Made by a program: the position numbers and the translations under genes. 64,000 nt of DNA from Candidatus Omnitrophota bacterium. GTDB taxonomy: Bacteria; Omnitrophota; Gorgyraeia; JABMRG01. Within the stretch, counting starts at the first letter, position 1. Each line of letters opens with the position of its first letter. Shown here in pieces: positions 9,211-51,753 of the stretch. The notes beneath the pieces are model-generated. The model was not told the DNA's origin, did not search any database, and saw nothing but the letters and a program-made list of their open reading frames with translations. The stretch is taken from contig JAQUQI010000002.1 in assembly GCA_028716165.1 (NCBI GenBank), positions 10,431 to 74,430 of the forward strand. The letters are read 5' to 3'.

Positions 9211-10716
9211 ATGTATACAAAGAATGATCTGCAAAATGCCGTAAAACAGATATTTGCGGATAATATGCTTATTGTAGTTTCAAACCGCGAGCCTTATGTG
9301 CACAAGGTGCGCGACGGGAAGATAATCTGCGGCCAGCCTACCGGAGGAGCCGTCGCCGCCCTTGAACCTGTTATGAGCGCTTGCGGCGGCACATGGGTGG
9401 CATATGGTTCCGGTTCAGGCGATAAAAAAACGGTTGACAAAAAAGACCATGTGGCAGTTCCGCCGGGCAAGCCTTCGTATATACTAAGAAGGGTATGGTT
9501 AAGCAGAGAGGAAGAGGCGGGTTATTATTACGGTTTTTCTAACAAGGGATTGTGGCCTTTATGCCACATAGCCTATACAAGGCCTGAATTCAACGAAGAC
9601 GAATGGCGGGTATATGTTGACGTCAACAAAAAATTTTGCGATGCCGTACTGGAAGAGATCGGTGATAAAAAGGCGTTTGTATGGATACAAGATTATCACT
9701 TGACACTTTTACCTCTTATGCTCAAGCAGGCCCGGCCGGAACTGCTCGTGTCGCATTTTTGGCATATACCATGGCCCAATTCCGAGGTATTTCGTATCTG
9801 CCCAAAACAGAGGCAGATACTGGAAGGCCTTTTGGCCAATGACCTGCTGGGTTTTCATATACGTTACCACTGCGAAAATTTCTTTGATACTGTAGACAAA
9901 ATGCTTGAGGCAAGAATAGACCGTGAACGCTATTCCGTGGTATACAGGGGCCACGAGACCCTTGTCAGGGCGTTTCCTATAAGCGTTGATTTCAACGCCA
10001 TATCCGATAGATGCGGGACTTCCGATATCAAGAGACACGCCAGGCCGCTTGTGGAAGAATATAATTTAAGCGGCATAGAATTCATAATGTTCGGGCTTGA
10101 CCGTATAGATTACACGAAAGGAATCATTGAACGGATAGAGGCGGTGGATAATTTTCTTGATAAAAATCCTTCTTTCAAGGGCAGGCTGGCCTTTGTTCAG
10201 GTAGGAGATTTGAGCAGAATACATCTTCAGGCGTATAAAGATTTAAACGACAAGATAAATGCCGTTGTTGAACGCGTGAACTGGAAACATGCCAGCGAAG
10301 ATTGGGCGCCGATAGTATTGGTGAGGCGCCATCTCTCATCAGACGAGATCATGGCCTTTTACCGGCTTGCCAATATATGCGTTGTCAGTTCTCTGCATGA
10401 CGGTATGAACATTGTTGCAAAAGAATATATAGCGTCAAGGCCGGATGGAGACGGTATATTGCTCTTGAGCCAGTTTACCGGAGCCGCCAGAGAGCTTACG
10501 GATGCGGTCACCTTTAACCCCTTTGACGCCGAGTCTTTTGTTGATAATATAAAATATGCTCTGGAGATGCCTGAAAATGAAAGAAGGCGCAGGATGTCGT
10601 CTTTGCGCGAGATAGTTTCTGAAAAAAATATTTACAAATGGGCCGGAGACATGGTATCGGAATTCGTCAAAATACAGAATACCGCCGCTTTTCCGGCCGG
10701 ACATAAGATAATATAA
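9211..10716 (+). CDS. otsA: Alpha,alpha-trehalose-phosphate synthase (glycosyltransferase family 20)
   Basis: N-terminal LIVVSNREP, a WHIPWP motif, and a GT20-like C-terminal half. Followed directly by a trehalose-phosphatase gene. Confidence 0.8.
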   Translation: MYTKNDLQNAVKQIFADNMLIVVSNREPYVHKVRDGKIICGQPTGGAVAALEPVMSACGGTWVAYGSGSGDKKTVDKKDHVAVPPGKPSYILRRVWLSREEEAGYYYGFSNKGLWPLCHIAYTRPEFNEDEWRVYVDVNKKFCDAVLEEIGDKKAFVWIQDYHLTLLPLMLKQARPELLVSHFWHIPWPNSEVFRICPKQRQILEGLLANDLLGFHIRYHCENFFDTVDKMLEARIDRERYSVVYRGHETLVRAFPISVDFNAISDRCGTSDIKRHARPLVEEYNLSGIEFIMFGLDRIDYTKGIIERIEAVDNFLDKNPSFKGRLAFVQVGDLSRIHLQAYKDLNDKINAVVERVNWKHASEDWAPIVLVRRHLSSDEIMAFYRLANICVVSSLHDGMNIVAKEYIASRPDGDGILLLSQFTGAARELTDAVTFNPFDAESFVDNIKYALEMPENERRRRMSSLREIVSEKNIYKWAGDMVSEFVKIQNTAAFPAGHKII

Positions 10717-10717
10717 A

Positions 10718-11515
10718 TTGAAATACCTATTAAAGAATCAGACAGAGCTGATTTACCGCATATCAGACCCGTCTTATCTGCATATTTTTCTGGATTTTGA
10801 CGGAACGCTGGCCCCGATAACCCAAAGGCCGGAACAGGCTGTCATGCCTGATGCCGCGCGCGATATTTTGAAAACATTAGTAAAGGCTAAAGGTGTAAGG
10901 ATATCCATTGTAAGCGGCCGCGCCTTAAATCGTGTTATCAGCTTAGTTGGCATAAAGGGCATAAGCTATGCCGGCTGTCACGGCCTTGAAACGCGGCCTA
11001 TCGGCAAGCAGGTTTTTCCCACCGCCAACCGGTCCGGGGTAAGGGCCTGTATTGGTTCTATAAGACAATCGTTGACAAAGGCATTGACAGGCATTATCAA
11101 CATGGCCTCCATTGATATTGAAGACAAGGGCCTGGTACTAAGCCTTCATTACAGGAGGCTAAAACCCGCCTGCCTTAAAAAACTAAGAGAAGTATTTTTA
11201 GCTGTTTCAAAGCCTTATGTCCTTTCCGGGCAGATGCGTGTCCTGAATAATAAAAAAGTATTTGAATTAAGGCCTCTGGTAGGACGGGATAAAGGTTCGT
11301 ATTGCCTGGACGCGCTAAAGGGATACAGAAAAAAAGCACTGCCTATTTATATAGGCGATGACAAGACGGACGAGTCGGCATTTAAGGCCTTAAAGCGCGC
11401 TGGCATTACGGTATTTGTCAAGGGAGAAAGAAAAACCTCGTCCGCTGAATTTTATCTTCATTCAACGAACGAGGTGATAGATTTTTTGCGTCTTATAGCC
11501 CGCGCAAGATCTTAG
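10718..11515 (+). CDS. otsB: Trehalose-6-phosphate phosphatase (HAD superfamily)
   Basis: HAD motif I (FLDFDGTLAP) near the N-terminus and motif IV (IGDDKTDE). Appears to use a TTG start, and no clear SD is visible. Confidence 0.75.
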   Translation: MKYLLKNQTELIYRISDPSYLHIFLDFDGTLAPITQRPEQAVMPDAARDILKTLVKAKGVRISIVSGRALNRVISLVGIKGISYAGCHGLETRPIGKQVFPTANRSGVRACIGSIRQSLTKALTGIINMASIDIEDKGLVLSLHYRRLKPACLKKLREVFLAVSKPYVLSGQMRVLNNKKVFELRPLVGRDKGSYCLDALKGYRKKALPIYIGDDKTDESAFKALKRAGITVFVKGERKTSSAEFYLHSTNEVIDFLRLIARARS

Positions 11516-11742
11516 ACGGCTTTTTTTACTTTACCGGATTTAAGGCATTCTACGCAGACGAGAATAGTTTTTCTGCTTTTCCCCACAATCGCCTTAACTC
11601 TCTGAAGATTGGGGAGAAAACGGCGTTTATTTGTCCTTACGATCTTTCTGCCGACCCCGCCTTTTCTCTTTGCCATACCGCGCCGGGTTATAGTCCTGCC
11701 CGAACTCGGCCCTTTTCCGCATATTGAACATACCTTTGACAT
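11512..11742 (-). CDS. rpmB: 50S ribosomal protein L28
   Basis: 76 aa basic protein (MSKVCSICGKGP...KRRFLPNLQ), typical of L28. A GGAGG SD sits 10 nt upstream. Divergent from recG, a common arrangement. Confidence 0.8.
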   Translation of the reverse strand: MSKVCSICGKGPSSGRTITRRGMAKRKGGVGRKIVRTNKRRFLPNLQRVKAIVGKSRKTILVCVECLKSGKVKKAV

Positions 11743-11915
11743 TTTTTAGATACCTCCTTGAGAATTCCTTTAATAGTGTGATATAATATCATACTATTAA
11801 TGTTAAGGCAAGGCTTATTTTTAACGCCTGCCATAGCGCCACTACAAAAACTGATTGCTAAAAATATAAGCGTATACCGGCGCAAACGGTTTTAAAAAAC
11901 TTATAACTTTTTGCC

Positions 11916-13997
11916 ATGCATAGCGATTTGAAAGACATATCCGCGCGTTATATAAAAGGCGTAGGCCCTGACAGGGCCAGGCTTTTGAAACGTTTGGGCA
12001 TAAATACCGTTCAGGATGCCTTTGAGTATTTTCCCAGAAGGTATGAGGACAGGAGCAATATAAAATCCATAAAGGACATTGTCCCCGATACATACCAGAC
12101 TGTAAAGGCTAAGATTGTTTCTTCCTCGGTATTTAGAACTAAAAAAGGTATAAGCATTTTCCAGCTTGTGGTATCAGACGGGACCGCTAACATGTATTGC
12201 CTGTGGTTTCGCCAGCCTTATATGAAAAAGTGTTTTCAGCCTGACGATATTTTGATTCTTTACGGGCGCGTGCAAAAAACGACAAGGTTTCAGCTTATAC
12301 ACCCTGAATATGAAATCATAAGAGAGCCTCAAGCCCAGGAAGAGCCCATACATACCGGACGCATTGTGCCGGTTTACCCGCTAGCTTCAGGTGTGCACCA
12401 GAGAAGTTTAAGGAGGATAATAAAAAATTGTATTGATCAATACCTGGATCAGGTTGATGATATTTTGCCGCAATATATTGTTACGCGGCATAAGCTGTTT
12501 GACATAAGGCCGGCTGTAAACAATATACACTTTCCCTCTGATGATGAAAAAAGGCTTTTGGCAAGGAGGCGTATAATATTTGAGGAATTTCTTATTCTTC
12601 AGCTCGCGCTTGCCTTAAGAAGGCATCAGATAAAGAGCGCGGCTGTACCCGGCCGGCGTTCTATAGACCCGTTAAGAGAAAAAGAGTTTTTTGCCTCACT
12701 TGATTTTAAACCGACTGCTTCGCAAGAGCGCGTGATGGAAGAGATAAAAACCGATGTCTTAAGCCCAAGGCCTATGCACCGGTTAATCCAGGGCGAGGTT
12801 GGTTCAGGCAAGACTCTGGTAGCCGCCTATGCCATGTTTTTGGCCTGTGCCGGCGGTCATCAGGCGGCCATTATGGCGCCTACGGAAATATTGGCCCGTC
12901 AGCATTATATAACATTAAACAGGATATTTTCCAGGCTTGGTATAAATACGGCCTTGCTTATGAACGATATGGGCAGGCAGAAAAAAGAGGACGTGCTGAC
13001 AGCTGTAAAAAAGGGGAGCATAGATATAATAATCGGCACTCACGCTTTGATACAAAGAGGCGTTGAGTTTAATAATCTTGGGATGGTGGTTGTTGATGAG
13101 CAGCACAAGTTTGGCGTGGAACAGAGAGCGGCATTGAAGATAAAAAATGATAACCCCGATGTCCTTATTATGACGGCAACGCCCATACCCAGGACCATGG
13201 CAATGACTCTCTACGGGGACATGGACATATCTGTTATAGATACCATGCCGCACGGAAAGAGGAATGTAAAAACGATGTGGGTTGAGAGTTCGCGCCGGGC
13301 AGAGGTCTATGATTTTGTAAAAAACCAGATTGCCAGCGGTTGCCAGGCGTATATAGTATACCCTGTTATAGAAGCATCTGATTGCATCAAATCAGAAGGG
13401 GCCCTGGTCATGTTTGAAAAATTAAGCCAAACGGTATTTAAGTCTTTACGTTTGGGGCTTATGCATGGCAGGCAGAACGAAGCGCAGAAGTCGGCCGTGA
13501 TGTCTGATTTCAAACAAAAAAAAATAGACGTGCTTATAGCGACGACTATCGTGGAGGTCGGAATAGACGTTCCAAACGCCTCGGTCATGGTCATTGAAAG
13601 CGCCCATCGTTTTGGGCTTAGCCAACTCCATCAATTAAGGGGCAGGGTGGGCAGAGGCAGGAATGCTTCTTTCTGCCTGCTCGTGTCGGATACGGATACG
13701 GATGAGGCCCGCCAAAGGCTTGAGGCCATATCCAGGATTGAAGACGGTTTTGAAATAGCCCGCGAGGATTTAAATATAAGGGGCCCCGGCGCCCTGTTTG
13801 GTAAACAACAGCACGGAACGCCGGCCCTGACATTGGGCAATATCGTATCCGATGTGGATATATTGGAACAGGCAAGGCACGAGGCCTTTGGTATCATAGA
13901 CTCTGACCCGGCCCTGAAAGACGCGCGCCATAAAAAGATGAAGGACAAACTTATGGAGCGGTTTAAAGATAAATTTTATTTAGGCATGACAGGTTAA
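11916..13997 (+). CDS. recG: ATP-dependent DNA helicase RecG
   Basis: Wedge domain followed by SF2 helicase motifs (GEVGSGKT, DEQHKFG, QLHQLRGRVGRG). Length 693 aa. Confidence 0.9.
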   Translation: MHSDLKDISARYIKGVGPDRARLLKRLGINTVQDAFEYFPRRYEDRSNIKSIKDIVPDTYQTVKAKIVSSSVFRTKKGISIFQLVVSDGTANMYCLWFRQPYMKKCFQPDDILILYGRVQKTTRFQLIHPEYEIIREPQAQEEPIHTGRIVPVYPLASGVHQRSLRRIIKNCIDQYLDQVDDILPQYIVTRHKLFDIRPAVNNIHFPSDDEKRLLARRRIIFEEFLILQLALALRRHQIKSAAVPGRRSIDPLREKEFFASLDFKPTASQERVMEEIKTDVLSPRPMHRLIQGEVGSGKTLVAAYAMFLACAGGHQAAIMAPTEILARQHYITLNRIFSRLGINTALLMNDMGRQKKEDVLTAVKKGSIDIIIGTHALIQRGVEFNNLGMVVVDEQHKFGVEQRAALKIKNDNPDVLIMTATPIPRTMAMTLYGDMDISVIDTMPHGKRNVKTMWVESSRRAEVYDFVKNQIASGCQAYIVYPVIEASDCIKSEGALVMFEKLSQTVFKSLRLGLMHGRQNEAQKSAVMSDFKQKKIDVLIATTIVEVGIDVPNASVMVIESAHRFGLSQLHQLRGRVGRGRNASFCLLVSDTDTDEARQRLEAISRIEDGFEIAREDLNIRGPGALFGKQQHGTPALTLGNIVSDVDILEQARHEAFGIIDSDPALKDARHKKMKDKLMERFKDKFYLGMTG

Positions 13998-41462: not shown

Positions 41463-42686
41463 ATGACATTGCGTAATTTAAAATTAAGTATATTTCTCGC
41501 GGCCAAAGACATGCTCAATAATCTTGGCTCGCTTGTATTTGTATCAGCGGCGCTGGGTTTCTTATTTGCCAATGTATTATTTTCAAGGTTTATGCTCTAT
41601 GGCTTTGAAAAGAGCATAGGAAGCCTTATACCGAAGGTTAGCGGTAATATGTATGCCACGCCCTTGAGAGGGCAATCCTATATATTTGACACGCAGAGGG
41701 TCCTGTCTTCAATAGGCTTAAATACTACGATAGGCGAGATGAGCCCTGTGCTTGAGATGCCTTGTGTTTTGGAATATAAGGGTTCCAGGATAGTTACCAT
41801 GGCCTGGGGGCTTGAATTCGGCGAGCAGGTCATGGATTTACAAAAACATATCGTTGAAGGCAGTTATTTTTCAGGCCCTGATTCAGAAGAGATAATATTG
41901 GGTAAGATACTGAAAAGGCGTTTCAAATTAAAAATACCCGTTACTGAAGAAATAACGCTTGGAGATTCCGCCAAAGGTATATTTATCAAGGAATATAATA
42001 TAGATAAATTCAATAAAGAGGTCTATAAAGATAAGTACGTGAAGATAACAGGAGTTGCCGATTTCAGAGATTATATAGCCAATAACAGCATTTTCATACC
42101 CTTGCAGACTTTAAGAAACGTTACTACGCTTCAAAACCGTTCATCAAGCGTGTTCATACGGCTCAAAGATGATATGAAAATTGACGAAGCAGGGGTCAAA
42201 CAGTATAAGCCTTATAATCTTGACGTGGAGTTAAAACACTGGAAAGACCGTGATGACTACGGAACTGACGACCTTGTCTACGGCTTTAACCTTATAAGCA
42301 TTATAACCTTTGGCGTGAGTATCATTTGCGCGGCTATATTAGTCGCGTTTATAGTTTTCTATAATACGCAAAAAAAACGAAGGACAACAGGCATACTCCG
42401 GGCCATAGGCATAAAGGGAAGGATATTTTTAACGTTCTTTATTATAGAAGGCGTTCTTTTCGCTGTGATAGGAGTTGTCACGGGGACGGCCCTTTATTAT
42501 TTACTGCAAACGTATCTTAAGGCGCATCCCATAATAATGCCTTTTGGAGATCTGTATCCTATGTTTGAGATAAACAGCTATATTTATGCTACCGCGCTTT
42601 TTTTAGTTGTGTCTTTTATGGCCAGCGTTTATTACGCGGTAAAAAGCGGTAAAGAAAATATAATAAAAGTAATAAGAGGCGATTAA
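41463..42686 (+). CDS. ABC transporter permease, FtsX/MacB/LolCE family
   Basis: TM1, a ~230 aa extracytoplasmic domain, and three C-terminal TM helices. The stop overlaps the start of the ATPase gene. GC noticeably lower than core genes. Confidence 0.75.
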   Translation: MTLRNLKLSIFLAAKDMLNNLGSLVFVSAALGFLFANVLFSRFMLYGFEKSIGSLIPKVSGNMYATPLRGQSYIFDTQRVLSSIGLNTTIGEMSPVLEMPCVLEYKGSRIVTMAWGLEFGEQVMDLQKHIVEGSYFSGPDSEEIILGKILKRRFKLKIPVTEEITLGDSAKGIFIKEYNIDKFNKEVYKDKYVKITGVADFRDYIANNSIFIPLQTLRNVTTLQNRSSSVFIRLKDDMKIDEAGVKQYKPYNLDVELKHWKDRDDYGTDDLVYGFNLISIITFGVSIICAAILVAFIVFYNTQKKRRTTGILRAIGIKGRIFLTFFIIEGVLFAVIGVVTGTALYYLLQTYLKAHPIIMPFGDLYPMFEINSYIYATALFLVVSFMASVYYAVKSGKENIIKVIRGD

Positions 42687-43393
42687 TGGTTAAAAAAGGG
42701 CCCAATTCCAAAAACAAGGTTATAATAAGCATAAAGAATCTGAAGAAAGACTATCATCTCGGTAATACCGTTGTCCAGGCGTTAAAAGACGTTAATCTTG
42801 AGATAAAAAGCGGCGAGTTTTCAATATTATTCGGCCCCTCGGGCAGCGGCAAAACCACGCTTTTAAACTTGTTAGGCCTTATAGATGTGCCTACCTGCGG
42901 CACGATTGTGCTGGACGGCCACGACACCGTTTCGCTTAATCGTATCCGGCGGGCGGAATTCAGGCTGAATAATATAGGCTTTATTTTTCAGAAATATTAT
43001 CTCCTTGATGAACTCACGGCGCTTGAAAATGTATTTTTGCCCGCTATTGCCAAGGAAGGGTATTCATCCCAGCTTTTGGCAAAGGCAAAGAGCATGCTTG
43101 AACTTGTCGGATTGAAGGAAAGGATGAGGCACAGGCCCGCCTATCTTTCAGAAGGCGAAAAACAGAGGGTAGCGGTTGCCAGAAGCCTCATTAACAGCCC
43201 CGCCATACTTCTCTGCGATGAGCCTACCGCCAGCCTTGACGCTGATAACGGGAGGGTGATACTTGACCTTTTGGCAAAGATAAACAAAGAAAGTTCTGCT
43301 ACCGTATTTCTTGTTACTCACGATGACCGCCAGCTCAAATACGGTGATAAGGTGATACACATCGCCGACGGGATGGTGCAAAAAGGGGAATAG
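42686..43393 (+). CDS. ABC transporter ATP-binding protein (MacB/LolD-like)
   Basis: Walker A (GPSGSGKTT), signature motif (LSEGEKQRV) and Walker B (ILLCDEPT). Confidence 0.85.
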   Translation: MVKKGPNSKNKVIISIKNLKKDYHLGNTVVQALKDVNLEIKSGEFSILFGPSGSGKTTLLNLLGLIDVPTCGTIVLDGHDTVSLNRIRRAEFRLNNIGFIFQKYYLLDELTALENVFLPAIAKEGYSSQLLAKAKSMLELVGLKERMRHRPAYLSEGEKQRVAVARSLINSPAILLCDEPTASLDADNGRVILDLLAKINKESSATVFLVTHDDRQLKYGDKVIHIADGMVQKGE

Positions 43394-43396
43394 GCT

Positions 43397-44629
43397 TTGG
43401 ATGATAAGAGGGTTGTAATTACCGGAATCGGATTAGTTACCCCAATTGGCATAGGCAAGGATATTTTTTGGGAAAATTGCTTGTCCGGAAAATCCAATGT
43501 TAAAAAAATAACCGCTTTTGATGTCAGCGAATATAACTGCAAGATAGCCTCCACGATAGATAGTTTTGACCCTGCCCGATATATGGATAAAATAATCGCA
43601 AGGCGCTCCGATAAATTCGCGCAGTTCGCCATTGCCGCCGCTTCTATGGCCATGGAAGACAGCCGTTTAAGCAATCCGGACCCAAAATACACAGGTGTTT
43701 GCATAGGCACAGGGCTGGGGGGCATGGTGTTCGCGGAAACGCAGATTGTTAATATCATAAAAGACGGAAATGGCGCGGTCAATCCTGTTTCTATCCCTAA
43801 GATTATGCCTAACTCTGTGGCAAACCAGATTGCCATTGTTCATAATGCCCAGGGCCCGAATCTTACTGTTTGCACAGCATGTTCGTCAGGCACGCATAGC
43901 ATAGGCCAGGCGTTTGATATTATCCGTCAGGGCAGAGCCAAGATTATGATTTCAGGAGGAGCGGATTCGCCTGTGATGAGATATAATTTTTTAGGTTTTG
44001 ATAAATTAAGCGTTATGAGCAGAAGAAATGACAGCCCGGAATCCGCCTCAAGGCCTTTTGATAAAGACAGAGACGGTTTTGTCATGGGAGAAGGGGCCGC
44101 TGTCCTGATACTTGAATCTTTAGACCATGCGCTCGCACGAAAGGCCGATATATATGCCGAGATCAAAGGTTATTCCATGACGTCAGGCGCCTATCATATT
44201 GTTATGCCGCGTCCTGATGCCAGCGATATAGCAAGGGCCATGAGAATATGCTTAAATGAGTCGCTTGTTATGCCAAAAGACGTTGATTATATAAACGCCC
44301 ACGGCACGGCTACTATTGCCAATGACAAGGCGGAAGCCAAAGCGATAGCCAAGATCTTTGGAGAACATGCCCAGCGCATACCGGTAAGTTCTACCAAATC
44401 CATGATAGGCCATACCTTAGGGGCGGCAGGGGCTATTGAAGCGGCCGTGTGCGCGTTGACGATATCGTCTGGTAAAATACACCCTACGGTGAATCTTGAA
44501 ACACCCGACGAGGATTGCAAGCTTAATCATGTTACGAAGAAACATTTTAAGCACGATGTAAGCATTGCTCTTTCAAATTCATTTGGGTTTGGCAACAATA
44601 ACGCGTGCCTGCTTTTTTCAAAAGTATAA
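43397..44629 (+). CDS. Beta-ketoacyl-[ACP] synthase, FabF/KAS-II-like elongating ketosynthase
   Basis: Active-site Cys (CTACSSG), His (NAHGTAT) and His (IGHTLGAAG), the C-H-H triad of elongating KSs. A 3-nt gap after the ABC ATPase stop suggests an operon. There are no fabD/fabG/fabH neighbours. Confidence 0.85.
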   Translation: MDDKRVVITGIGLVTPIGIGKDIFWENCLSGKSNVKKITAFDVSEYNCKIASTIDSFDPARYMDKIIARRSDKFAQFAIAAASMAMEDSRLSNPDPKYTGVCIGTGLGGMVFAETQIVNIIKDGNGAVNPVSIPKIMPNSVANQIAIVHNAQGPNLTVCTACSSGTHSIGQAFDIIRQGRAKIMISGGADSPVMRYNFLGFDKLSVMSRRNDSPESASRPFDKDRDGFVMGEGAAVLILESLDHALARKADIYAEIKGYSMTSGAYHIVMPRPDASDIARAMRICLNESLVMPKDVDYINAHGTATIANDKAEAKAIAKIFGEHAQRIPVSSTKSMIGHTLGAAGAIEAAVCALTISSGKIHPTVNLETPDEDCKLNHVTKKHFKHDVSIALSNSFGFGNNNACLLFSKV

Positions 44630-44649
44630 GAGAAAGGACACTATTTTTA

Positions 44650-44913
44650 ATGGATAATAGTAAGAAATTTTCAAAATGCGAAATAGCCGAAGAATTAAAA
44701 AAAATTATTGCAGATATAGTAAATGTAGAAAAAGAAGCGATTGATTTTACAACAAAATTGTTGGAAGATCTTGGAATGGATTCTTTTGCTGTAGCCGAGA
44801 CTATGTTTTTAATCCAAGAAAAATTCGGAGTCACCATAGCTCAAGAAGATATACTTAAAGTAGATACTTTTAATAGTCTTGTAGAAACGTTGGATAAGAT
44901 TTTAAATGGTTGA
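44650..44913 (+). CDS. Acyl carrier protein
   Basis: 87 aa acidic protein with the phosphopantetheine-attachment motif LGMDSFAVAE (an Asp-Ser-Phe variant of DSL). Start at the ATG at 44650 after AAAGGA. Very AT-rich. Confidence 0.7.
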   Translation: MDNSKKFSKCEIAEELKKIIADIVNVEKEAIDFTTKLLEDLGMDSFAVAETMFLIQEKFGVTIAQEDILKVDTFNSLVETLDKILNG

Positions 44914-44957
44914 GGGGTATAGAATATTATTAGTCAATGTGAGGCAACCATAAGATG

Positions 44958-44986
44958 CCAGGGTGAGGCCCTGGTATTTTGTTTTT
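44958..44986 (+). terminator. Putative intrinsic terminator or attenuator between the ACP gene and the HMGR-like gene
   Basis: Stem CCAGGG (44958-44963), loop TGAGG, stem CCCTGG (44969-44974), followed by TATTTTGTTTTT. Confidence 0.35.
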
Positions 44987-45006
44987 AATTTATATTGGAG
45001 GTACCA

Positions 45007-46200
45007 ATGAACGCTGCAATAGATAATAATAAAAAAAGTTGTAATGATAATATGTTGAGTAATTTTTCTGAATTGAAAAAAATTCAAGTAAGACGTGACC
45101 AGCTACAGAAAAATACAAATATGGTTTTATCAGAGATTACAAAAACACATTTTGATTTATCACATGTTAGCAATTATATTGAAAACATGATAGGTGTATG
45201 CAATGTTCCTTTAGGAGTAGCGGGTCCGATACAAATAAATGGAGATTTTGCTAATGGTAAATTCTATGTTCCATTTGCAACTACACAATCAACTCTAATA
45301 CGTTCTTATGATAGAGGTATGAAGGTTCTTACTGCATCAGGTGGAGTCAATACAAAGATCATTAAAGATGAAATTCACATTTCACCAGTTTTCTGCTTTT
45401 CGAATCTGAAAGAAGCAAAAAATTTCTATAATTGGTCAATTGAGAATTTTGAACTGCTTAAAAAAGAAGCGGAAAGTGTTACTACCCATGGCAAGTTATT
45501 ACGTATAAAACCTGTAATATTAGGAAGAAAGGTTATATTAACGTTATATTTTTCAACGCAGGATGCTATGGGGTTGAATATGATTGTTATAGCAGCGGAT
45601 AAGTTGTGCCGCTATATTTCTAAAAATATACAAGTCAGAAAGTATTATTTACGTTCAAATTATTCAGCCGACAAGAAACCGTCATATTTGAATTTTATTG
45701 AAGGTTATGGAAAAACAGTTGTTGTCGAAGCTACTATAGCAAAACAAATTATAGAAGGTTATCTACAGACATCCGCAAAAGAACTTTATGATTTTTGGAT
45801 TACAAGTGTTATCTGCGGTATTCAATCTGGATTGATGGGTTTGAACGCTCATTTTGCTAATGGTCTATCTGCTATTTTTTTAGCTTGCGGACAAGACATT
45901 GCCAGTGTTGTTAATGCTTGCTTAGGCATTGGAACTATTGAAATTGAAGATAATGGAGATTTGTATATTTCTGGGCGCATATCGTCATTACCTATAGGTA
46001 CTGTAGGTGGTGCTACCGATTTAGGCACACAAAAAGAATGTTTGCAAATTATGGATTGTTTTGGTAACGGAAAAACTAATCGTTTGGCTGAGATTATATC
46101 AGCTACTTTAGTTGCAGGAGAGATTTCTATTGTTTCAGCAATTGCGACTGGAAATTTTGCTTCGGCACATATCAATGCTAGGTTAAAAAAGGGAAAATAA
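45007..46200 (+). CDS. Soluble class-I HMG-CoA-reductase-fold protein with non-canonical active-site residues
   Basis: Class-I HMGR blocks: ENMIGVCNVPLGVAGP, TQDAMGLNMI, ACGQD, PIGTVGGAT, and a C-terminal AGEISIVSAIATG. Strong GGAGG SD. However TTQS replaces the catalytic TTEG, and GN replaces the catalytic GH. Confidence 0.75.
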   Translation: MNAAIDNNKKSCNDNMLSNFSELKKIQVRRDQLQKNTNMVLSEITKTHFDLSHVSNYIENMIGVCNVPLGVAGPIQINGDFANGKFYVPFATTQSTLIRSYDRGMKVLTASGGVNTKIIKDEIHISPVFCFSNLKEAKNFYNWSIENFELLKKEAESVTTHGKLLRIKPVILGRKVILTLYFSTQDAMGLNMIVIAADKLCRYISKNIQVRKYYLRSNYSADKKPSYLNFIEGYGKTVVVEATIAKQIIEGYLQTSAKELYDFWITSVICGIQSGLMGLNAHFANGLSAIFLACGQDIASVVNACLGIGTIEIEDNGDLYISGRISSLPIGTVGGATDLGTQKECLQIMDCFGNGKTNRLAEIISATLVAGEISIVSAIATGNFASAHINARLKKGK

Positions 46201-46203
46201 GAC

Positions 46204-47481
46204 GTGATTAAATCTAGTGCTGAAGTTATAATTGTTGGTTCTGGAGCAGCCGGCTCAACTATTGCTAAGGAACTGGCCGGTCGCGGTAGAAAAATTATTA
46301 TAATTGAAAAAGGTAAATTTGCAGGTTATCTTGGCAACGAGATTAGGGCCAGCGCGTACTACGAAGGTTCTCCTTTGCTCGTTAGGTCTAAGAGCGGTGT
46401 GATGTTCCATTATACAAAAAATCTTGGTGGTAGCACAGTTTTTAGTTGTGGAAATGCTGTTAGAGGTTCACTAGATATATTTTTACGGTTTGGTATAGAT
46501 TTACGTCGCGAGCTTGCGGAGACTGAAGAGGAATTATCGGTAATGCCTGTAGATAAAAAATTAATTGGCCAGAAAGGTACCAAAGATTTTTATGATGCAG
46601 CTATTAATTTGGGTTATAAGATTGATTATATGCCGAAATTTATGAAAAAAGGGATGTGTTCTCTGTGTGGCAAATGCGTGCTAGGGTGTCCAAATAATGC
46701 TAGATGGACTGCTGTTGATTATGTTGATTTTGCTATTGGGAAAGGTGCTCTTGTTGAGCACGCCGTTGTAGAAAAGGTTATTATAAAAAATAATAAAGCC
46801 ATTGGTGTTTTAGCTAAACAGGGAAAAAAACAGGTAACTATTTATGCTGATAAAATCGTGCTTGCGGCAGGAGGGCTTAATTCACCCGTGATACTACAAA
46901 AGTCTGGCTTATCTGCTGGTAAGAAATTGTTTTGTGATTTGTTCAATGTAACATATGCTGTGTCATTGAAAGATGGAATGTTTCGTGATTTAAGTATGTC
47001 TTTAGTTGATATGGAATTTTTTAAAAATGATGGTTTTATAATATCTCCATTTATGGATCCTATTATTTTATTTCTTATCATTTTTAATAAGTTTTTGCCA
47101 TTTTATTTATTGAAGTATAAAAATGTTGTTGGCATAGAAGTTAAGATTAAGGATGATATGATTGGATCGGTTTCATCGGATGGGCGAATCCAAAAAATAG
47201 TTACTGCCGATGATTCAAAAAAAATTAGTAAGGGTGTAGAAATTGCTAAGGATATTTTAAACCATATGCCTATTGATAAAAGGACGATTAATACAACTAT
47301 ATTGCGAGGCGCGCATCCTGGCGGTACTTCTGCTATTGGGGAAGTTGTTGATTGTAATTTGCAAACAGGGGTGAAAGGGTTATATGTATGTGATGCTAGT
47401 GTATTACCAGAAGCGTTAGGCCTGCCACCAATAATAACGCTAATTGCTTTATCTAAATGGTTTGTTAAAACTCAATTTTAA
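46204..47481 (+). CDS. GMC-family-like FAD-dependent oxidoreductase with an inserted CX2CX2CX3CP ferredoxin-type motif
   Basis: N-terminal FAD Rossmann (IIVGSGAAGSTIA...IIIEKG). C-terminal GMC-type block (RGAHPGGTSAIGEVVDCNLQTGVKGLYVCDASVLP). Cys cluster CSLCGKCVLGCP at aa 152-163. GTG start 3 nt after the HMGR-like stop. Confidence 0.6.
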   Translation: MIKSSAEVIIVGSGAAGSTIAKELAGRGRKIIIIEKGKFAGYLGNEIRASAYYEGSPLLVRSKSGVMFHYTKNLGGSTVFSCGNAVRGSLDIFLRFGIDLRRELAETEEELSVMPVDKKLIGQKGTKDFYDAAINLGYKIDYMPKFMKKGMCSLCGKCVLGCPNNARWTAVDYVDFAIGKGALVEHAVVEKVIIKNNKAIGVLAKQGKKQVTIYADKIVLAAGGLNSPVILQKSGLSAGKKLFCDLFNVTYAVSLKDGMFRDLSMSLVDMEFFKNDGFIISPFMDPIILFLIIFNKFLPFYLLKYKNVVGIEVKIKDDMIGSVSSDGRIQKIVTADDSKKISKGVEIAKDILNHMPIDKRTINTTILRGAHPGGTSAIGEVVDCNLQTGVKGLYVCDASVLPEALGLPPIITLIALSKWFVKTQF

Positions 47482-47485
47482 AATT

Positions 47486-49537
47486 ATGCCATATTTTGCA
47501 ATATCAGCTATTACAGCGTCATTGATTAATATCATTATCGGCACATTTGTTCTATTAAAAGACAGAAGATGCCTGCAGAATAGGACATATTCAGGTGTTT
47601 CATTTGCTGTCGCAATATGGTGTCTTGGATTAGCTAATATGGTTAATTCGACTAACAGCTGCGAAGCTTTTTTTTGGGTAAGATTTTTACATATAGGAGT
47701 TTTTTTAATCCCCCCACTTTATTTTAATTTTATTTGTTCTTTGTTGCATATTGTTGACTATAAAAAAAGTTTACTTATTTCCATGTATATTATTTCAACT
47801 TGTTTTATTTTGTTTAATTATGGGACACGTTTATTAATTTCTGATGTTGTTCCAAAATATAGTTTTAATTATTATGCTACTGCTGGATCTGTGTATTTTT
47901 TATATATATTGTATTTAACTGGTTTTATTATATATTCAATTATTCTTATTATGAAACATTATAAGAGTTTTTCTGCTTTACGAAAAATGCAGTTCAAGTA
48001 TGTAATAGTTGCTTCTATCGTAGCGTTTATAGGGGGGTCAGATACTTTTTTACCAATGTTTGATTTGCCAGTCATGATTAATGGTATTTTTTTATTGCCA
48101 CTTTTTACGCTTATGGCTGCTTATGTTATTGTTAAGCATAGATTTTTGGACATTGAAATCATAATCCGCGAGACGGCAATATTCGCGGGTATATTCGGTT
48201 TTTCAATAGGCCTGTTTATGCTGGCGATTATAGCGGGCGAACAATTCCTCAAGCCTTATATAGGCGATAACCGTTGGATCGTCCCGGCATTATCACTCTT
48301 ACTTGTCACGTTTGTTATCCGCCCAATTGAAAAAATTATATACAATGTTGCCGGTAGGATATTATTTCGCAGAAAGTATGAATATCAAAAGACCCTTCAG
48401 GACGCCGCTGAAGGCATGTCTAAGATCCGTGACCCAAAGAAATTGTTGAGCCTGATAGTGCATATAATATCAGCTAAGCTCAAGCTTGTTAATACTGCTG
48501 TTTTTCTCTTTGAAAGCGGATCCGCTTCGTACGTTCTGAAGGCTTCAAGAGGGGATATGGGGAGCTCTCCGGCAAGCTTAAAGCCCGAAAACGCTCTGAT
48601 AACATGGCTTTGCGAGAAGAAAAAACCGCTTGGCCTTGATGATGTTCAGAAATGGATAAACAATTTTAACCAGAAATACATGCCCGGCGTGCTTAAGTCC
48701 GATCTGGCCCAGATAAGGGACACTATGCTTAATCAACGCGCGGCCTTGAGCGTGCCTTGTTTTTTTAGAAACGAGCTTTTAGGCGTGCTTATACTTGGAG
48801 AGAAAAAAAACGGAGATTTTTTTTCCCAGGATGATATAGATTTATTCAGCGCTCTATCCAATGAAGCGGCCATTGCTCTCAAAAATTCACAACTCTATTT
48901 TGAGATAGACAGAAGGGCTTTTGAGCTTGAGAACCTTTACAAGAGAGAGCACAGGCTGTTTATGCATTCATCCGTGGCGTTTGCCGCGGCAATAGATGCC
49001 AGAGATCCTTATACCCACGGCCATTCGCAAAGGGTCACAAATATAAGCCTGGTGATACTTGATTTTATGGGAGCTATGGATGAGATAGATAAAGATGCTT
49101 TCTTCAGGCATAGGCTGCAAATAACAGGGGTCTTGCATGATATAGGAAAGATAGGCGTACCCGATGATATATTGCATAAACCGGCGCAGCTTACGCCCGA
49201 AGAGAGAAAAGAGATAGAGAAACACCCCGTATTGGGGGCGGAAATTGTATCTCATATTGCCGGGCTAAGAAACCTTATCGGAGGCATCAAATATCATCAT
49301 GAAAGATATGACGGCAAAGGCTACCCCGAAGGGCTTAAGTCGGATGAGATACCTCTGATGGCAAGGATTATTTCCGTTGCCGACACTTATGATGCCATGA
49401 CAAGCGACAGGCCTTATAGGAAAGGCCTCCCGTTTTTGACGGCAAGAGACGAAATACAAAGAAACGCGTCGGCGCAGTTTGACCCTTATGTGGTAGCGGC
49501 TTTTTTAAAAGCATTTGAACAGGGTAAGATAGAATAA
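47486..49537 (+). CDS. Membrane sensor HD-GYP phosphodiesterase (7TM receptor-like domain, GAF, HD-GYP)
   Basis: Polytopic N-terminus, a GAF-like middle region, and an HD-GYP domain (HGHSQR, LHDIGKIG, HHERYDGKGYPEGL). Roughly the first 225 codons are strikingly AT-rich and the remainder is at host GC. Confidence 0.8.
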   Translation: MPYFAISAITASLINIIIGTFVLLKDRRCLQNRTYSGVSFAVAIWCLGLANMVNSTNSCEAFFWVRFLHIGVFLIPPLYFNFICSLLHIVDYKKSLLISMYIISTCFILFNYGTRLLISDVVPKYSFNYYATAGSVYFLYILYLTGFIIYSIILIMKHYKSFSALRKMQFKYVIVASIVAFIGGSDTFLPMFDLPVMINGIFLLPLFTLMAAYVIVKHRFLDIEIIIRETAIFAGIFGFSIGLFMLAIIAGEQFLKPYIGDNRWIVPALSLLLVTFVIRPIEKIIYNVAGRILFRRKYEYQKTLQDAAEGMSKIRDPKKLLSLIVHIISAKLKLVNTAVFLFESGSASYVLKASRGDMGSSPASLKPENALITWLCEKKKPLGLDDVQKWINNFNQKYMPGVLKSDLAQIRDTMLNQRAALSVPCFFRNELLGVLILGEKKNGDFFSQDDIDLFSALSNEAAIALKNSQLYFEIDRRAFELENLYKREHRLFMHSSVAFAAAIDARDPYTHGHSQRVTNISLVILDFMGAMDEIDKDAFFRHRLQITGVLHDIGKIGVPDDILHKPAQLTPEERKEIEKHPVLGAEIVSHIAGLRNLIGGIKYHHERYDGKGYPEGLKSDEIPLMARIISVADTYDAMTSDRPYRKGLPFLTARDEIQRNASAQFDPYVVAAFLKAFEQGKIE

Positions 49538-49548
49538 CAGTCCGTCAG

Positions 49549-49586
49549 CCGCGGAGTTTGAAACAAACCGCGGCCGTGGTGTTTTT
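49549..49586 (+). terminator. Putative terminator between the two HD-GYP genes
   Basis: CCGCGG (49549-49554), a 13-nt loop, CCGCGG (49568-49573), then ccgtggtgTTTTT. The loop is long, so this may be weak. Confidence 0.3.
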
Positions 49587-49603
49587 AAAACCTTAGGTTA
49601 AAT

Positions 49604-51724
49604 ATGTGTTATTACAAGCTGCATTATATAGCAGGTTCCGTGTTTACGCTTCTTATTACCCTTCTGCTGGGAAGCCTGATCTATTTTAGAGGCAGAAGGG
49701 GCGAGGTTGTGAGAAGTTACTACCTGTTAATGCTTTCCATCGCGGAATTTTCATTGTGCACTTTATTGTTCTGCTTGTTTAATGATAAAGACTATACCCT
49801 GTTTTTCGCCAGGGCCTCTTATATAGGGGTTTCCTTTGTGCCCATATTTTATTTTCATTTTATTATAAAACTTATGGGGTTGACAGAAAAGATCAAAAGG
49901 GTCCTGTCTGCCGGTTATATTCTGGCGGTTATTTTTTCCGGGTTGAGTTTTTCACCGTTAATCGTTAAAAGTATATCGTTCAAGCTGGGCCTGAATTTTA
50001 ATGATCCCGGCGTGCTTCATCCCGTATTTATGTTGTTTTTTGCCGGGTTCCCCGCTTACGCGCATTATCTCATGGGCAGGTCTATCGGCAGGTTAAGCGA
50101 TATAGGCAAACGCCAAATGAAGTATGTCACGATAGCCGGCATATGCGGCCTAAGCGGCGGCAGTTTAATGTTTTTTACGGTTTACGGTGTATCTATTCCC
50201 ATAATAGGGCCTATGGCCTTATACTTTGTCGCTCTTGCCAATCTCTTTGTTGCTATAGCAACGTATGTGGTACGCCTTATGGGTGTTGAGGTCATAAGGA
50301 GAAGGACGCTGATATTTTCAATTCTCTATGGAGCGAGTGTCGGCAGTTTTGTAGCGTTTGTTTTTATCCTGCAAAGACATTTATCAGCTTCTTTTAATGT
50401 GAACAGATGGATACTGCCTGTGGCCGCGGTTTTTATTTTGACAGTTTTTATAAGGCCGTTAGAAAAATTTCTTGCCGGATTTACCGACGCGTTTTTATAC
50501 CAGCGCGGATACGACTATATGCTGGTTTTAAGAAACGTCGCCAAAGGTATGACGCTTATAACCGATACAAGAAAACTCCTGAACCTTATGGTAAGGTTTA
50601 TATCAAAAGAAGTAAGGATAACCGGCAGTTCGGCTTATATTTTCAATAAAACGCTGAATTCATATATCAGGGAAGTCCGCAGAGGTTTTAAAGGCCAGCA
50701 GACCCTGGAAAGAGTGGATGCCGACAACCCTCTTGTTAAATGGCTTATGGAAAAAAGAGAGCCTATAAGTTATGAAAGTGTTTTAAGCTGGATCCAGGGC
50801 GACAGGATTTTTCCGCAGAGGATTATTCTTAAAAAGACTCTTGACCATATCCGGGTGACCATGGAAAAGACCGGTGCCGTATTATGCGTTCCGAGTTTTT
50901 TAAGAGGCCAGATGATCGGTTTTATAGTGCTTGGCCCTAAGCTATCGGGCAATATCTATACGAGCGATGATTTTTCACTTTTATCCACCCTGGCCAATAA
51001 TGCGGCTATTGCCTTTGAGAACGCGCGCATGTATGAAGAGCTTACGGAAAGAATATATAAATTAGACGCTTTATATAAAGAAGAGCACGCGTTGTTTTTG
51101 GACGCGGCCTCGGCATTTAGCTTTGCTATTGATTCCAAGGACGGGTATACCTATGCCCATACCCGCAGATTAAGCAATTACGCGATGGCTACGGCCAAGG
51201 AACTTGAAAAACTTTTGCCGTATATTAACTTTAATGATTCTTTTTACGAGACGCTTCATATCGCGTCACTTTTACATGATGTGGGCAAGATAGGTATACC
51301 GGACAGGATACTAAAAAAACGTTCGGCCCTGACAGACGAAGAAAAGGAAAAATTCAAAGAGCATGTTACTATAGGCCAAAATATCTTAAAGCCCATTAAA
51401 GAAATAGGAGACAGCTTTGATGTTATACGGCACCATCATGAAAACTTTGACGGCACAGGCTATCCCGACGGATTAAAAGGCAATGCTATACCCATGGCGT
51501 CCCGCATTATAGCGGTTTGCAATGGCTTTGACATTATGACTTCAACCTATCTGGAAGGCGAGCCTGTTACCAGACAGCAGGCCATAGAAAAGCTTAAGGA
51601 AAAAAGCGGGAGCTTTTTTGACCCCGTGATAGTTGACGCTTTTATTGCCGCTTATGCAAACAAGGAATATGCCGGATTTTTTCTTGATATACCCACTGAT
51701 AGCGTTAAAAACCGGACATTTTAA
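49604..51724 (+). CDS. Membrane sensor HD-GYP phosphodiesterase, paralog
   Basis: Same architecture as the upstream gene (AHTRRL, LHDVGKIG, HHHENFDGTGYPDGL). GC is uniform and host-like. Confidence 0.8.
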   Translation: MCYYKLHYIAGSVFTLLITLLLGSLIYFRGRRGEVVRSYYLLMLSIAEFSLCTLLFCLFNDKDYTLFFARASYIGVSFVPIFYFHFIIKLMGLTEKIKRVLSAGYILAVIFSGLSFSPLIVKSISFKLGLNFNDPGVLHPVFMLFFAGFPAYAHYLMGRSIGRLSDIGKRQMKYVTIAGICGLSGGSLMFFTVYGVSIPIIGPMALYFVALANLFVAIATYVVRLMGVEVIRRRTLIFSILYGASVGSFVAFVFILQRHLSASFNVNRWILPVAAVFILTVFIRPLEKFLAGFTDAFLYQRGYDYMLVLRNVAKGMTLITDTRKLLNLMVRFISKEVRITGSSAYIFNKTLNSYIREVRRGFKGQQTLERVDADNPLVKWLMEKREPISYESVLSWIQGDRIFPQRIILKKTLDHIRVTMEKTGAVLCVPSFLRGQMIGFIVLGPKLSGNIYTSDDFSLLSTLANNAAIAFENARMYEELTERIYKLDALYKEEHALFLDAASAFSFAIDSKDGYTYAHTRRLSNYAMATAKELEKLLPYINFNDSFYETLHIASLLHDVGKIGIPDRILKKRSALTDEEKEKFKEHVTIGQNILKPIKEIGDSFDVIRHHHENFDGTGYPDGLKGNAIPMASRIIAVCNGFDIMTSTYLEGEPVTRQQAIEKLKEKSGSFFDPVIVDAFIAAYANKEYAGFFLDIPTDSVKNRTF

Positions 51725-51753
51725 TTTTGGCTTGATATGGAAAGCTAATGCCC

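Follow-up and report, generated by a model that had tools for sequence, protein, structure and literature searches.

The window analyzed here is a 64,000-nucleotide stretch of contig JAQUQI010000002.1 from a Candidatus Omnitrophota bacterium (assembly GCA_028716165.1, positions 10,431 to 74,430 of the forward strand). The element under study is a tandem pair of genes on its + strand, H1 (47486-49537; 683 residues from an ATG, the mechanically called open reading frame (ORF) beginning at TTG 47444) and H2 (49604-51724; 706 residues), together with a block of low-GC genes immediately upstream. As the original prediction had it, the two proteins share a seven-transmembrane (7TM)-GAF-HD-GYP architecture: both match Pfam HisKA_7TM (PF16927; 38.2 bits for H1 and 43.2 bits for H2, cutoff 28.6), a GAF family (31.8 bits to GAF, cutoff 22.4, for H1; 33.5 bits to GAF_3, cutoff 27, for H2) and HD_5 (124 and 119 bits, respectively) above the cutoffs, with HD also above threshold, and a weak PrsK match (TIGR02916) that spans the 7TM and GAF regions lies far under its cutoff. 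H1 consists of a variable module (codons 1-222; 47486-48151, +), which contains the complete HisKA_7TM sensor (Pfam residues 9-223) and forms the right end of a low-GC cassette, and a conserved module of host-like GC content (48152-49537, +), which comprises transmembrane helices 8 and 9 (TM8-TM9), the GAF domain (~48431-48880) and the HD-GYP domain (~48986-49489). The two meet at a recombination junction in the TM7-TM8 loop (KHRFLDIEIIIRETA; 48114-48172, +), where both pairwise homology and GC content at third codon positions (GC3) break. H2, the tandem paralog of the same architecture, belongs to the conserved backbone throughout and is followed on the + strand by cvpA, a NIF3-family gene, dnaG and rpoD, in that order.

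The boundary between the modules of H1 is sharp in base composition. Codons 1-220 have a GC content of 0.29 and a GC3 of 0.22, and the remainder 0.44 and 0.47; cutting the gene at codon 228 gives GC3 values of 0.232 and 0.464 (Fisher p=2.8e-9), and the maximum-likelihood change point falls at codon 220, window position 48,146. In 50-codon windows, GC3 stays at 0.08-0.30 over codons 1-225 and is then mostly 0.40-0.58, with one window at 0.34. Among 166 comparison windows of 228 codons, taken from the other long ORFs of the window, GC3 is 0.486 ± 0.030 and nowhere below 0.408, so that the N-terminal value of 0.232 lies ~8 standard deviations below them. The earlier claims that this 5' part is as AT-rich as the upstream genes (GC3 0.20-0.26) and that composition switches near 48,160 (junction at ~48,150-48,172) thus hold, and so does the assertion that the second paralog is host-like including its membrane region: GC3 in the two halves of H2 is 0.50 and 0.44 (p=0.17), and because both are host-like, hydrophobic or membrane-domain codon bias cannot explain the shift in H1.

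The same step recurs in relatives. Exact-protein look-ups of H1 homologs gave 12 syntenic Omnitrophota loci, and further orthologs (L003-L005, L013, L084, L085) came from pattern scans of genome and metagenome contigs, where they stood amid distant HD-GYP proteins. The N-terminal module of H1 has a GC3 of 0.17-0.30 at 15 of the 15 H1-ortholog loci examined; across loci, the cargo genes and H1 codons up to ~220 range from 0.12 to 0.31, versus 0.37-0.53 for H2, the flanks and the remaining part of H1. Neither H2 nor the distant 7TM-GAF-HD-GYP homologs of other Omnitrophota show the step. Around it, the loci share a conserved backbone (rplU-rpmA-obg-proB-proA-nadD-...-permease-ABC-[variable]-H1-H2-cvpA-NIF3-dnaG-rpoD-glnA), interrupted in all 12 by a hypervariable low-GC cassette that begins at the end of fabF, or of the ABC gene, and runs as far as H1 codon ~210-229. 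What the cassette carries differs from locus to locus: genes for an acyl carrier protein (ACP), an HMG-CoA-reductase-family enzyme (HMGR) and a GMC-family FAD oxidoreductase (GMC) in the window and L172; ACP-HMGR in L164 and L167; HMGR-ACP in L001 and L169; ACP and a 4HBT thioesterase in L002; Methyltransf_20 and a second, divergent ketosynthase (KS) in L163; a PilZ-methyltransferase fusion in L166 and L170; a 507-511-residue protein with no Pfam match in L165 and L171; a Rossmann reductase in L168; an SRPBCC (polyketide-cyclase-like) protein and a Rossmann reductase in L005; and HMGR-KS in L084. In most loci the cargo gene next to H1 abuts it or overlaps it by 0-14 nt, and in the window the gap is 4 nt.

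Pairwise comparisons establish that these cassettes have been exchanged. L001 and L002, which come from different samples, are 99.45% identical over 3.6 kb and 99.78% identical over 11.4 kb of flanking DNA; from the fabF stop codon to H1 codon ~210 they are unrelated, save for a 341-bp piece at 90.6%, and their H1 proteins are 17.5% identical before the junction and 100% identical after it. L164 and L168 share 97.7% identity from codon ~222 onward and nothing alignable upstream, and the H1 proteins P0008 and P0016 are 99.6% identical in their C-terminal and 22.6% in their N-terminal parts. In the comparison of L164 with L167 it is the cassette that is conserved: DNA identity is 94-97% over ACP, HMGR and the H1 N-terminus, 81-88% in fabF and 68-81% in the C-terminal part of H1, with steps at the start of the ACP gene and at H1 codon ~217. 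As for the window itself, its homology to L001 and L002 (~80%) ends at 44,635 and restarts at 48,082-48,147 (blastn); its conserved H1 module is 90% identical to those of L001 and L002, the variable module being 17-41% identical to other types regardless of C-terminal identity. An exhaustive HMMER search with the N-terminal module against 1.84 billion cluster representatives returned 3,137 matches, the best of them 44% identical.

The 341-bp piece shared by L001 (7335-7675) and L002 (3982-4322) identifies a "76-aa gene" of L001 as the remnant of the 4HBT thioesterase gene that is intact in L002; the cassettes are therefore themselves mosaics from successive events.

The N-terminal identities of 26 full-length orthologs form a bimodal distribution, with 12 pairs at ≥62%, 313 pairs at ≤39% and none between, which resolves 16 types. 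They are nearly uncorrelated with C-terminal identities (Mantel r 0.17) and remain <40% in 19 of the 21 pairs whose C-terminal identity is ≥85%. Sensor type matches cargo type in five of the five same-type pairs examined: P0005 and P0008 (N-terminal identity 94%; ACP-HMGR in both), L001 and P0009 (74%; HMGR-ACP), P0012 and P0014 (72%; PilZ-methyltransferase), P0010 and P0006 (65%; the 507-511-residue protein), and the window and L172 (ACP-HMGR-GMC), the last of which holds just ~25 H1 codons. L172 is a second copy of the window cassette type, running from the end of the ACP gene through a hairpin, HMGR (75% identical at the protein level) and GMC (66%) to the start of a similar H1, at a DNA identity of 72% and with a GC3 of 0.21; the partial protein P0019, whose last helix is window-like (76% over 34 residues), probably shares this cassette type as well. 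HMGR identities are 97%, 84% and 75% within types and 43-49% between them. The cassettes are thus discrete, deeply diverged types that are replaced whole between strains and species. Same-type cassettes that have diverged by 24-28% in DNA nevertheless retain a GC3 of ~0.2, so that low GC is a stable property of the cassette pool, which argues against a recent low-GC import and makes the "foreign" origin first proposed for the sensor doubtful.

On the right-hand side, exchange takes place within the conserved TM7-TM8 loop (RHRLMDIEIIIRETA), homology breakpoints falling at H1 codons ~210-229 in seven independent pairs. In the 12-locus alignment, the difference between L001 and L002 gives way to identity precisely at CG(C/T)GAGACGGCG, which encodes R-E-T of an invariant RHRLMDIEIIIRETAIFAGIFGFS stretch (window ~48,150-48,172) that is locally the most conserved DNA, with a mean pairwise identity of 0.84. 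By the positive-inside rule, the junction would lie in a short cytoplasmic loop, so that swapping at this point would preserve membrane topology. The boundaries have no meaningful direct or inverted repeats, no tRNA gene and no Rfam element, and all ORFs in the 41.4-52.4 kb interval belong to families other than integrases, transposases or recombinases, at variance with a mobile island or integron; for these reasons the exchange is best explained by homologous recombination in conserved arms.

The part of H1 that stays constant is a predicted enzyme. In the AlphaFold2 model of H1 (mean predicted local distance difference test (pLDDT) 74.7), seven helices and an extracytoplasmic β-hairpin precede residue ~222; pLDDT is <50 at residues 217-235, beyond which lie two conserved helices, GAF and HD-GYP. 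The top Foldseek match in the PDB is PmGH (4mcw, E=1.3e-14), with GAF matches also found; by sequence, the closest PDB entry is a cGAMP-specific HD-GYP protein (5z7c, E=1e-37), followed by PmGH. By family H1 would be a cyclic di-GMP (c-di-GMP) phosphodiesterase, its substrate specificity being a prediction. Like PmGH (4MCW), it combines a GAF-HD-GYP output with conserved metal ligands. Both proteins were aligned to 4mcw and compared at the PmGH ligands H189, H221/D222, H250, H276/H277 and D305 and at its motif G284-Y285-P286 (PMC4159591). H1 carries H513, H551/D552, H580, H604/H605 and D633 together with G612-Y613-P614, and hence all seven family-wide HD-GYP ligands, which are invariant in the 26 orthologs except for H605 (≥90% conserved); since the position of PmGH E185 is a Tyr, H1 is placed in the Y/F subfamily and predicted to be binuclear. 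The claim that the HD-GYP site is intact in both paralogs therefore stands for H1, with all shared ligands, and fails for H2, which has the HD, HH and GYP motifs and an Asn (VCN...) at the D305 position in 10 of the 10 H2 orthologs examined. The H2 site (VCNGFDIMTSTYLEGEP, 51,494-51,540) also lacks the R314/RPY motif in the window copy; this motif is missing from H2 in the clade formed by the window, L001 and L002, and more distant H2 orthologs retain it in part. Judged from these residues, H2 is a conserved variant and not a fully canonical HD-GYP protein. It may be a weakened enzyme rather than a dead one, because the D305A mutant of PmGH retains reduced activity (PMC4159591), or it may be a regulatory partner of H1.

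The alignment of H1 with H2 covers 674 columns at 33% identity (E=1e-125); identity is 26-28% in the N-terminal 7TM region and 31-38% C-terminal to it, and the two genes are adjacent in every relative. Because divergence is even and the pair is kept together, the duplication is old and H2 takes no part in the mosaic. This removes the tandem paralog as the partner in a chimera; moreover, the proposed comparison of paralog halves finds no markedly higher C-terminal identity, and the even divergence makes it uninformative. Nor is the AT-rich N-terminus limited to genomes with the island enzymes, for low GC3 is also found at ortholog loci without HMGR or GMC. The original prediction had named even divergence and a wider distribution of AT-rich N-termini as observations against chimerism; formally both are made here, yet the AT-rich N-termini of the relatives go back to repeated exchange of cassettes throughout the lineage and not to in-situ or vertical evolution. 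What survives of the suggestion that an incoming homolog recombined with a resident copy is that H1 is a recombinant mosaic and that the upstream enzymes belong to the same block; that this happened in a single event does not.

The output module of H1 (TM8-9, GAF and HD-GYP) belongs to the vertical backbone with rplU...fabF and H2-cvpA-dnaG-rpoD, and the input module (HisKA_7TM, codons 1 to ~222) is passed on in a single block together with between one and three enzymes that modify small molecules or acyl groups. We consider it likely, overall, that H1 is a recombinant mosaic in which a low-GC sensor and the enzyme cassette upstream of it are exchanged as a unit over a constant catalytic half; that sensor and enzymes form a functional pair is an inferred part of this account. 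H1 would then be a membrane-bound, one-component c-di-GMP phosphodiesterase that combines two evolutionary modules. Crossovers would take place on the left in fabF or the ABC gene and on the right in the DNA encoding the TM7-TM8 loop and TM8, keeping reading frame and membrane topology in each exchange; a signal perceived in the 7TM bundle would reach the HD-GYP site by way of TM8-9 and GAF, and c-di-GMP would fall. Sensor and enzymes may be a co-adapted pair and, by analogy with pherotypes, the cassette types would differ in the input that they feed into one shared c-di-GMP-lowering output. The low GC3 might persist because divergent types cannot recombine with each other and so escape GC-biased conversion. 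That the 7TM sensor reads a product or substrate of the cassette enzymes is a suggestion to which, from the gene arrangement, we give even weight. Its extension to a lipid-type pherotype or kin-recognition system, with a strain-specific secreted acyl-derived signal and a matching 7TM receptor, is drawn from analogy and seems to us rather unlikely; here the acyl-derived molecule would be made or modified by the cassette enzymes and possibly exported by the adjacent LolCDE/MacB-like pump, and mutual lowering of c-di-GMP would be confined to cells with the same cassette type.

Other accounts of how the composition step arose are far less probable. The sharp GC3 step at codon 220, its continuity with the AT-rich upstream genes and a best match of just 44% for the N-terminal module among 1.84 billion cluster representatives could suggest that a single AT-rich island arrived from a low-GC donor and that recombination joined its end to a resident HD-GYP gene. 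The comparative loci largely refute such a one-off chimera, which is highly improbable: the same step is present at each H1 ortholog locus, including those with very different cargo; a diverged second copy of the window cassette type exists in L172 and probably in P0019; low GC3 is kept within types after the 24-28% divergence noted above; and hallmarks of mobile elements were not found at the boundaries. Since sensor domains in general evolve faster than output domains and N-terminal identities are saturated at 17-40%, the sensor might instead have diverged in place under diversifying or relaxed selection and AT-biased mutation, with no exchange at all; this extremely improbable scenario is refuted by flanks of 99.5-99.8% identity around 17.5% identical sensors with different upstream genes and by a cassette (94-97%) that is more conserved than its flanks (68-88%), and it also disagrees with the bimodal distribution of identities and with the equivalent domain of H2, which shows neither effect. 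The source is a metagenome-assembled genome, so that an AT-rich block mis-joined into the contig by assembly or binning could be imagined; the probability of this is negligible, given an ORF that is intact and in frame over the junction, the same junction in ≥12 independent assemblies (JGI, ENA and NCBI) and an NCBI entry, encoded on a 257-kb contig, that matches the H1 protein at 100% identity.

The main functional rival to a matched sensor-enzyme pair concerns what the exchange is for. Phage, predator or toxin pressure may diversify surface or lipid chemistry as well as the 7TM loops, with the sensor as a target or a hitch-hiker. The locus does resemble surface-polysaccharide loci in being a low-GC hypervariable region between conserved genes; its lipid- and acyl-modifying cargo adjoins a LolCDE/MacB-like exporter, a second low-GC indel with an ArnT/PMT-type glycosyltransferase lies nearby in L001 and L002, and the variable module has the predicted extracytoplasmic β-hairpin. 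However, the entire 7TM domain is exchanged, membrane helices included, and not the loops alone; part of the cargo is of a cytoplasmic signaling type, such as the PilZ-methyltransferase fusion; and the junction coincides with the exact input/output domain boundary in all pairs. We therefore regard envelope variation as distinctly unlikely. Several points nonetheless weigh against the matched-pair reading. The argument for pairing is linkage, and any two neighboring segments will co-vary if they lie in a block within which different types do not recombine. The signal molecule, its export and the ligand are hypothetical, and the account offered for the lasting low GC of the cassettes is a possible one, of the nature of conjecture. 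The cargo is heterogeneous, one type (the 507-511-residue protein) having no recognizable domain, and a hairpin within the window cassette means that co-transcription with H1 is not required for every cassette gene. Foldseek found no structural analogue in the PDB for the 7TM module, its matches being confined to GAF and HD-GYP. Finally, the dataset consists of metagenome assemblies throughout, with few relatives on sufficiently long contigs.

The arrangement has a counterpart in the staphylococcal agr system, whose hypervariable region takes in the 3' part of agrB, agrD and the 5' part of agrC, which encodes the polytopic sensor (PMC10482373). As in agr, there are discrete allelic types with conserved bounds, and on the right the block ends within the receptor gene, where sensor and output meet (PMC10482373). 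In both, genes inside the block co-vary with the sensor; those of agr make the signal, a role for which the genes here are candidates. In Bacillus subtilis comQXP, comQ, comX and the 5' end of comP, encoding the membrane sensor, are poorly conserved and the rest is conserved, and communication groups coexist at a small spatial scale (PMC6334282); there, too, a modifying enzyme travels with the sensor. The receptor output at the present locus is, however, a predicted HD-GYP c-di-GMP phosphodiesterase instead of the histidine kinase of agr. Unlike agr and comQXP, the cassettes have no small peptide-precursor ORF and no kinase domain, their cargo consisting of acyl- and small-molecule-modifying enzymes; the gene content of the cargo, and not just its sequence, varies between types, in contrast to comQXP; and at least 16 types are spread over species of an uncultivated phylum, in contrast to agr. 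In the diffusible signal factor (DSF)/RpfC-RpfG paradigm, a fatty-acid signal is linked to an HD-GYP enzyme, and the likeness here is the presence of fatty-acid-type enzymes beside an HD-GYP gene; H1 differs in that nine membrane helices of its own provide the input, where the paradigm has a separate kinase acting on a REC domain, and no RpfF or RpfB homologs were seen. O-antigen and capsule loci are low-GC hypervariable gene sets that are replaced whole by recombination in conserved flanking genes. The cassettes resemble them as low-GC hypervariable units swapped via conserved flanks, and differ in that one boundary lies inside a signaling gene at a domain junction and the cargo amounts to between one and three small enzymes and no glycan assembly pathway.

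No account of such a sensor cassette was found in the literature searched. According to a 2021 review preprint, no HD-GYP protein with an extracytoplasmic or membrane sensor had by then been experimentally characterized (10.1101/2021.11.05.467447), and the ligands of membrane sensors on HD-GYP and other c-di-GMP enzymes are largely unassigned. The cassettes amount to a natural domain-swap series, with at least 16 inputs on a constant output, in which the products of neighboring enzymes are candidate ligands and the orthologs are ready-made chimeras. They also extend strain-level polymorphism in the manner of agr and comQXP past the peptide quorum sensing of Firmicutes to an uncultivated phylum and a second-messenger pathway. 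If the pherotype proposal is true, the locus would be the first polymorphic signal/receptor cassette whose output degrades a second messenger, and a HisKA_7TM sensor would for the first time have a ligand assigned to it.

The cassette of the window is bounded on the left by fabF (43397-44629, +), a β-ketoacyl-ACP synthase II gene (TIGR03150, 527.5 bits, above the cutoff of 493.75) that is host-like (GC3 0.46), 89% identical at the protein level to those of L001 and L002 and the left conserved arm in this genome. Upstream of it, the conserved backbone includes an ABC exporter of the LolCDE/MacB-like kind, made up of an FtsX-type permease (41463-42686, +; Pfam FtsX) and an ATPase (42686-43393, +; Pfam ABC_tran); NCBIfam LolD/LolCE-like matches for these genes (41463-43393) fall under the cutoffs. 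The ABC protein is 77-94% identical between loci, and in relatives without fabF at the locus the exporter genes are the left arm of the variable slot.

Within the cassette, the ACP gene (44651-44913, +; PP-binding, 46.7 bits; GC3 0.20) stays under the acpP equivalog cutoffs, and its product shares 25-48% identity with the ACPs that other cassette types encode. HMGR (45007-46200, +; Pfam HMG-CoA_red, 359 bits; GC3 0.22) scores 341.8 bits against the HMG-CoA reductase NADPH equivalog TIGR00533, short of the cutoff of 441.8, and would best be labeled an HMGR-family enzyme with no assigned substrate. Both mechanically called starts are probably wrong: ATG 44651, with AAAGGA ahead of it, fits the ribosome-binding site and ortholog length of the ACP better than GTG 44605, as does ATG 45007, behind GGAGG, for HMGR in place of TTG 44995. 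GMC (46204-47481, +; GMC_oxred_N and GMC_oxred_C; GC3 0.26) begins 3 nt past HMGR and stops 4 nt short of H1; its nearest relative is the 66% identical protein of L172, where the order is likewise HMGR-GMC-H1. Between the ACP gene and HMGR, a terminator-like hairpin (44950-44992, +; CCAGGG...CCCTGG followed by a T-tract) is the top such site of the region, with a minimum free energy of -24.2 kcal/mol and a z score of -4.3; its counterpart in L172 (~128-160; -22.2, z -5.3) keeps the stem and has a different loop, and Rfam gave no match here or elsewhere at the locus. The hairpin could be a terminator or attenuator that divides the cassette into two transcription units, and because of its strength and position HMGR-GMC-H1 is likely to be one co-transcribed unit. 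The idea that the island enzymes are linked transcriptionally to c-di-GMP turnover is accordingly plausible for HMGR-GMC-H1, from which the hairpin parts fabF and ACP.

Several observations concern the cargo of other loci. The PilZ-methyltransferase proteins (L166 6656-7996; L170 6650-7996; P0242, P0256) have canonical RxxxR and DxSxxG c-di-GMP-binding motifs, and PilZ-GMC-oxidoreductase fusions of 543-546 residues are found among homologs of the window GMC; these fusions are an independent hint that cargo enzymes may be tied to c-di-GMP. The ketosynthase of L163 (1510-2757), behind the Methyltransf_20 gene, is 39-41% identical to the backbone fabF and has a GC3 of 0.22; a ketosynthase can therefore be either backbone (fabF) or cargo. 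In L084 (2490-3725) the order is HMGR-KS, elsewhere KS-...-HMGR. More distant H1 orthologs occur in tandem pairs in other neighborhoods, behind fabH-fabD...SRPBCC-Rossmann reductase in L005 (3852-8004) and behind coaC, a transglutaminase-like gene and coaB in L013 (19-2016), and keep the low-GC3 sensor half (0.30 versus 0.48-0.49). In L170, H2 is divided into two ORFs (10221-11498, the 7TM part, and 11500-12255, the HD-GYP part), which could reflect a frameshift, a pseudogene or a sequencing error. The second low-GC indel (GC3 0.30-0.31) lies in the H2-cvpA interval and encodes a PMT/ArnT-type membrane glycosyltransferase (L001 13669-15180; L002 8633-10144); it is missing from the window (empty site at ~51,688-51,740) and from L163-L168.

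The composition step also bears on annotation. The JGI call for H1 of L001 (10001-11392, 463 residues) begins at a Met at the junction, within an intact ORF of 684 residues (9338-11392). An internal translation start at this Met was considered as a general feature and rejected, because the window and L163 have a Leu there. The step apparently misleads gene callers into truncating H1 at the junction, and database entries for the family are often wrong; the short homolog P0003, and possibly P0031, P0039, P0040 and P0043, may reflect the same artefact or cuts at contig ends.

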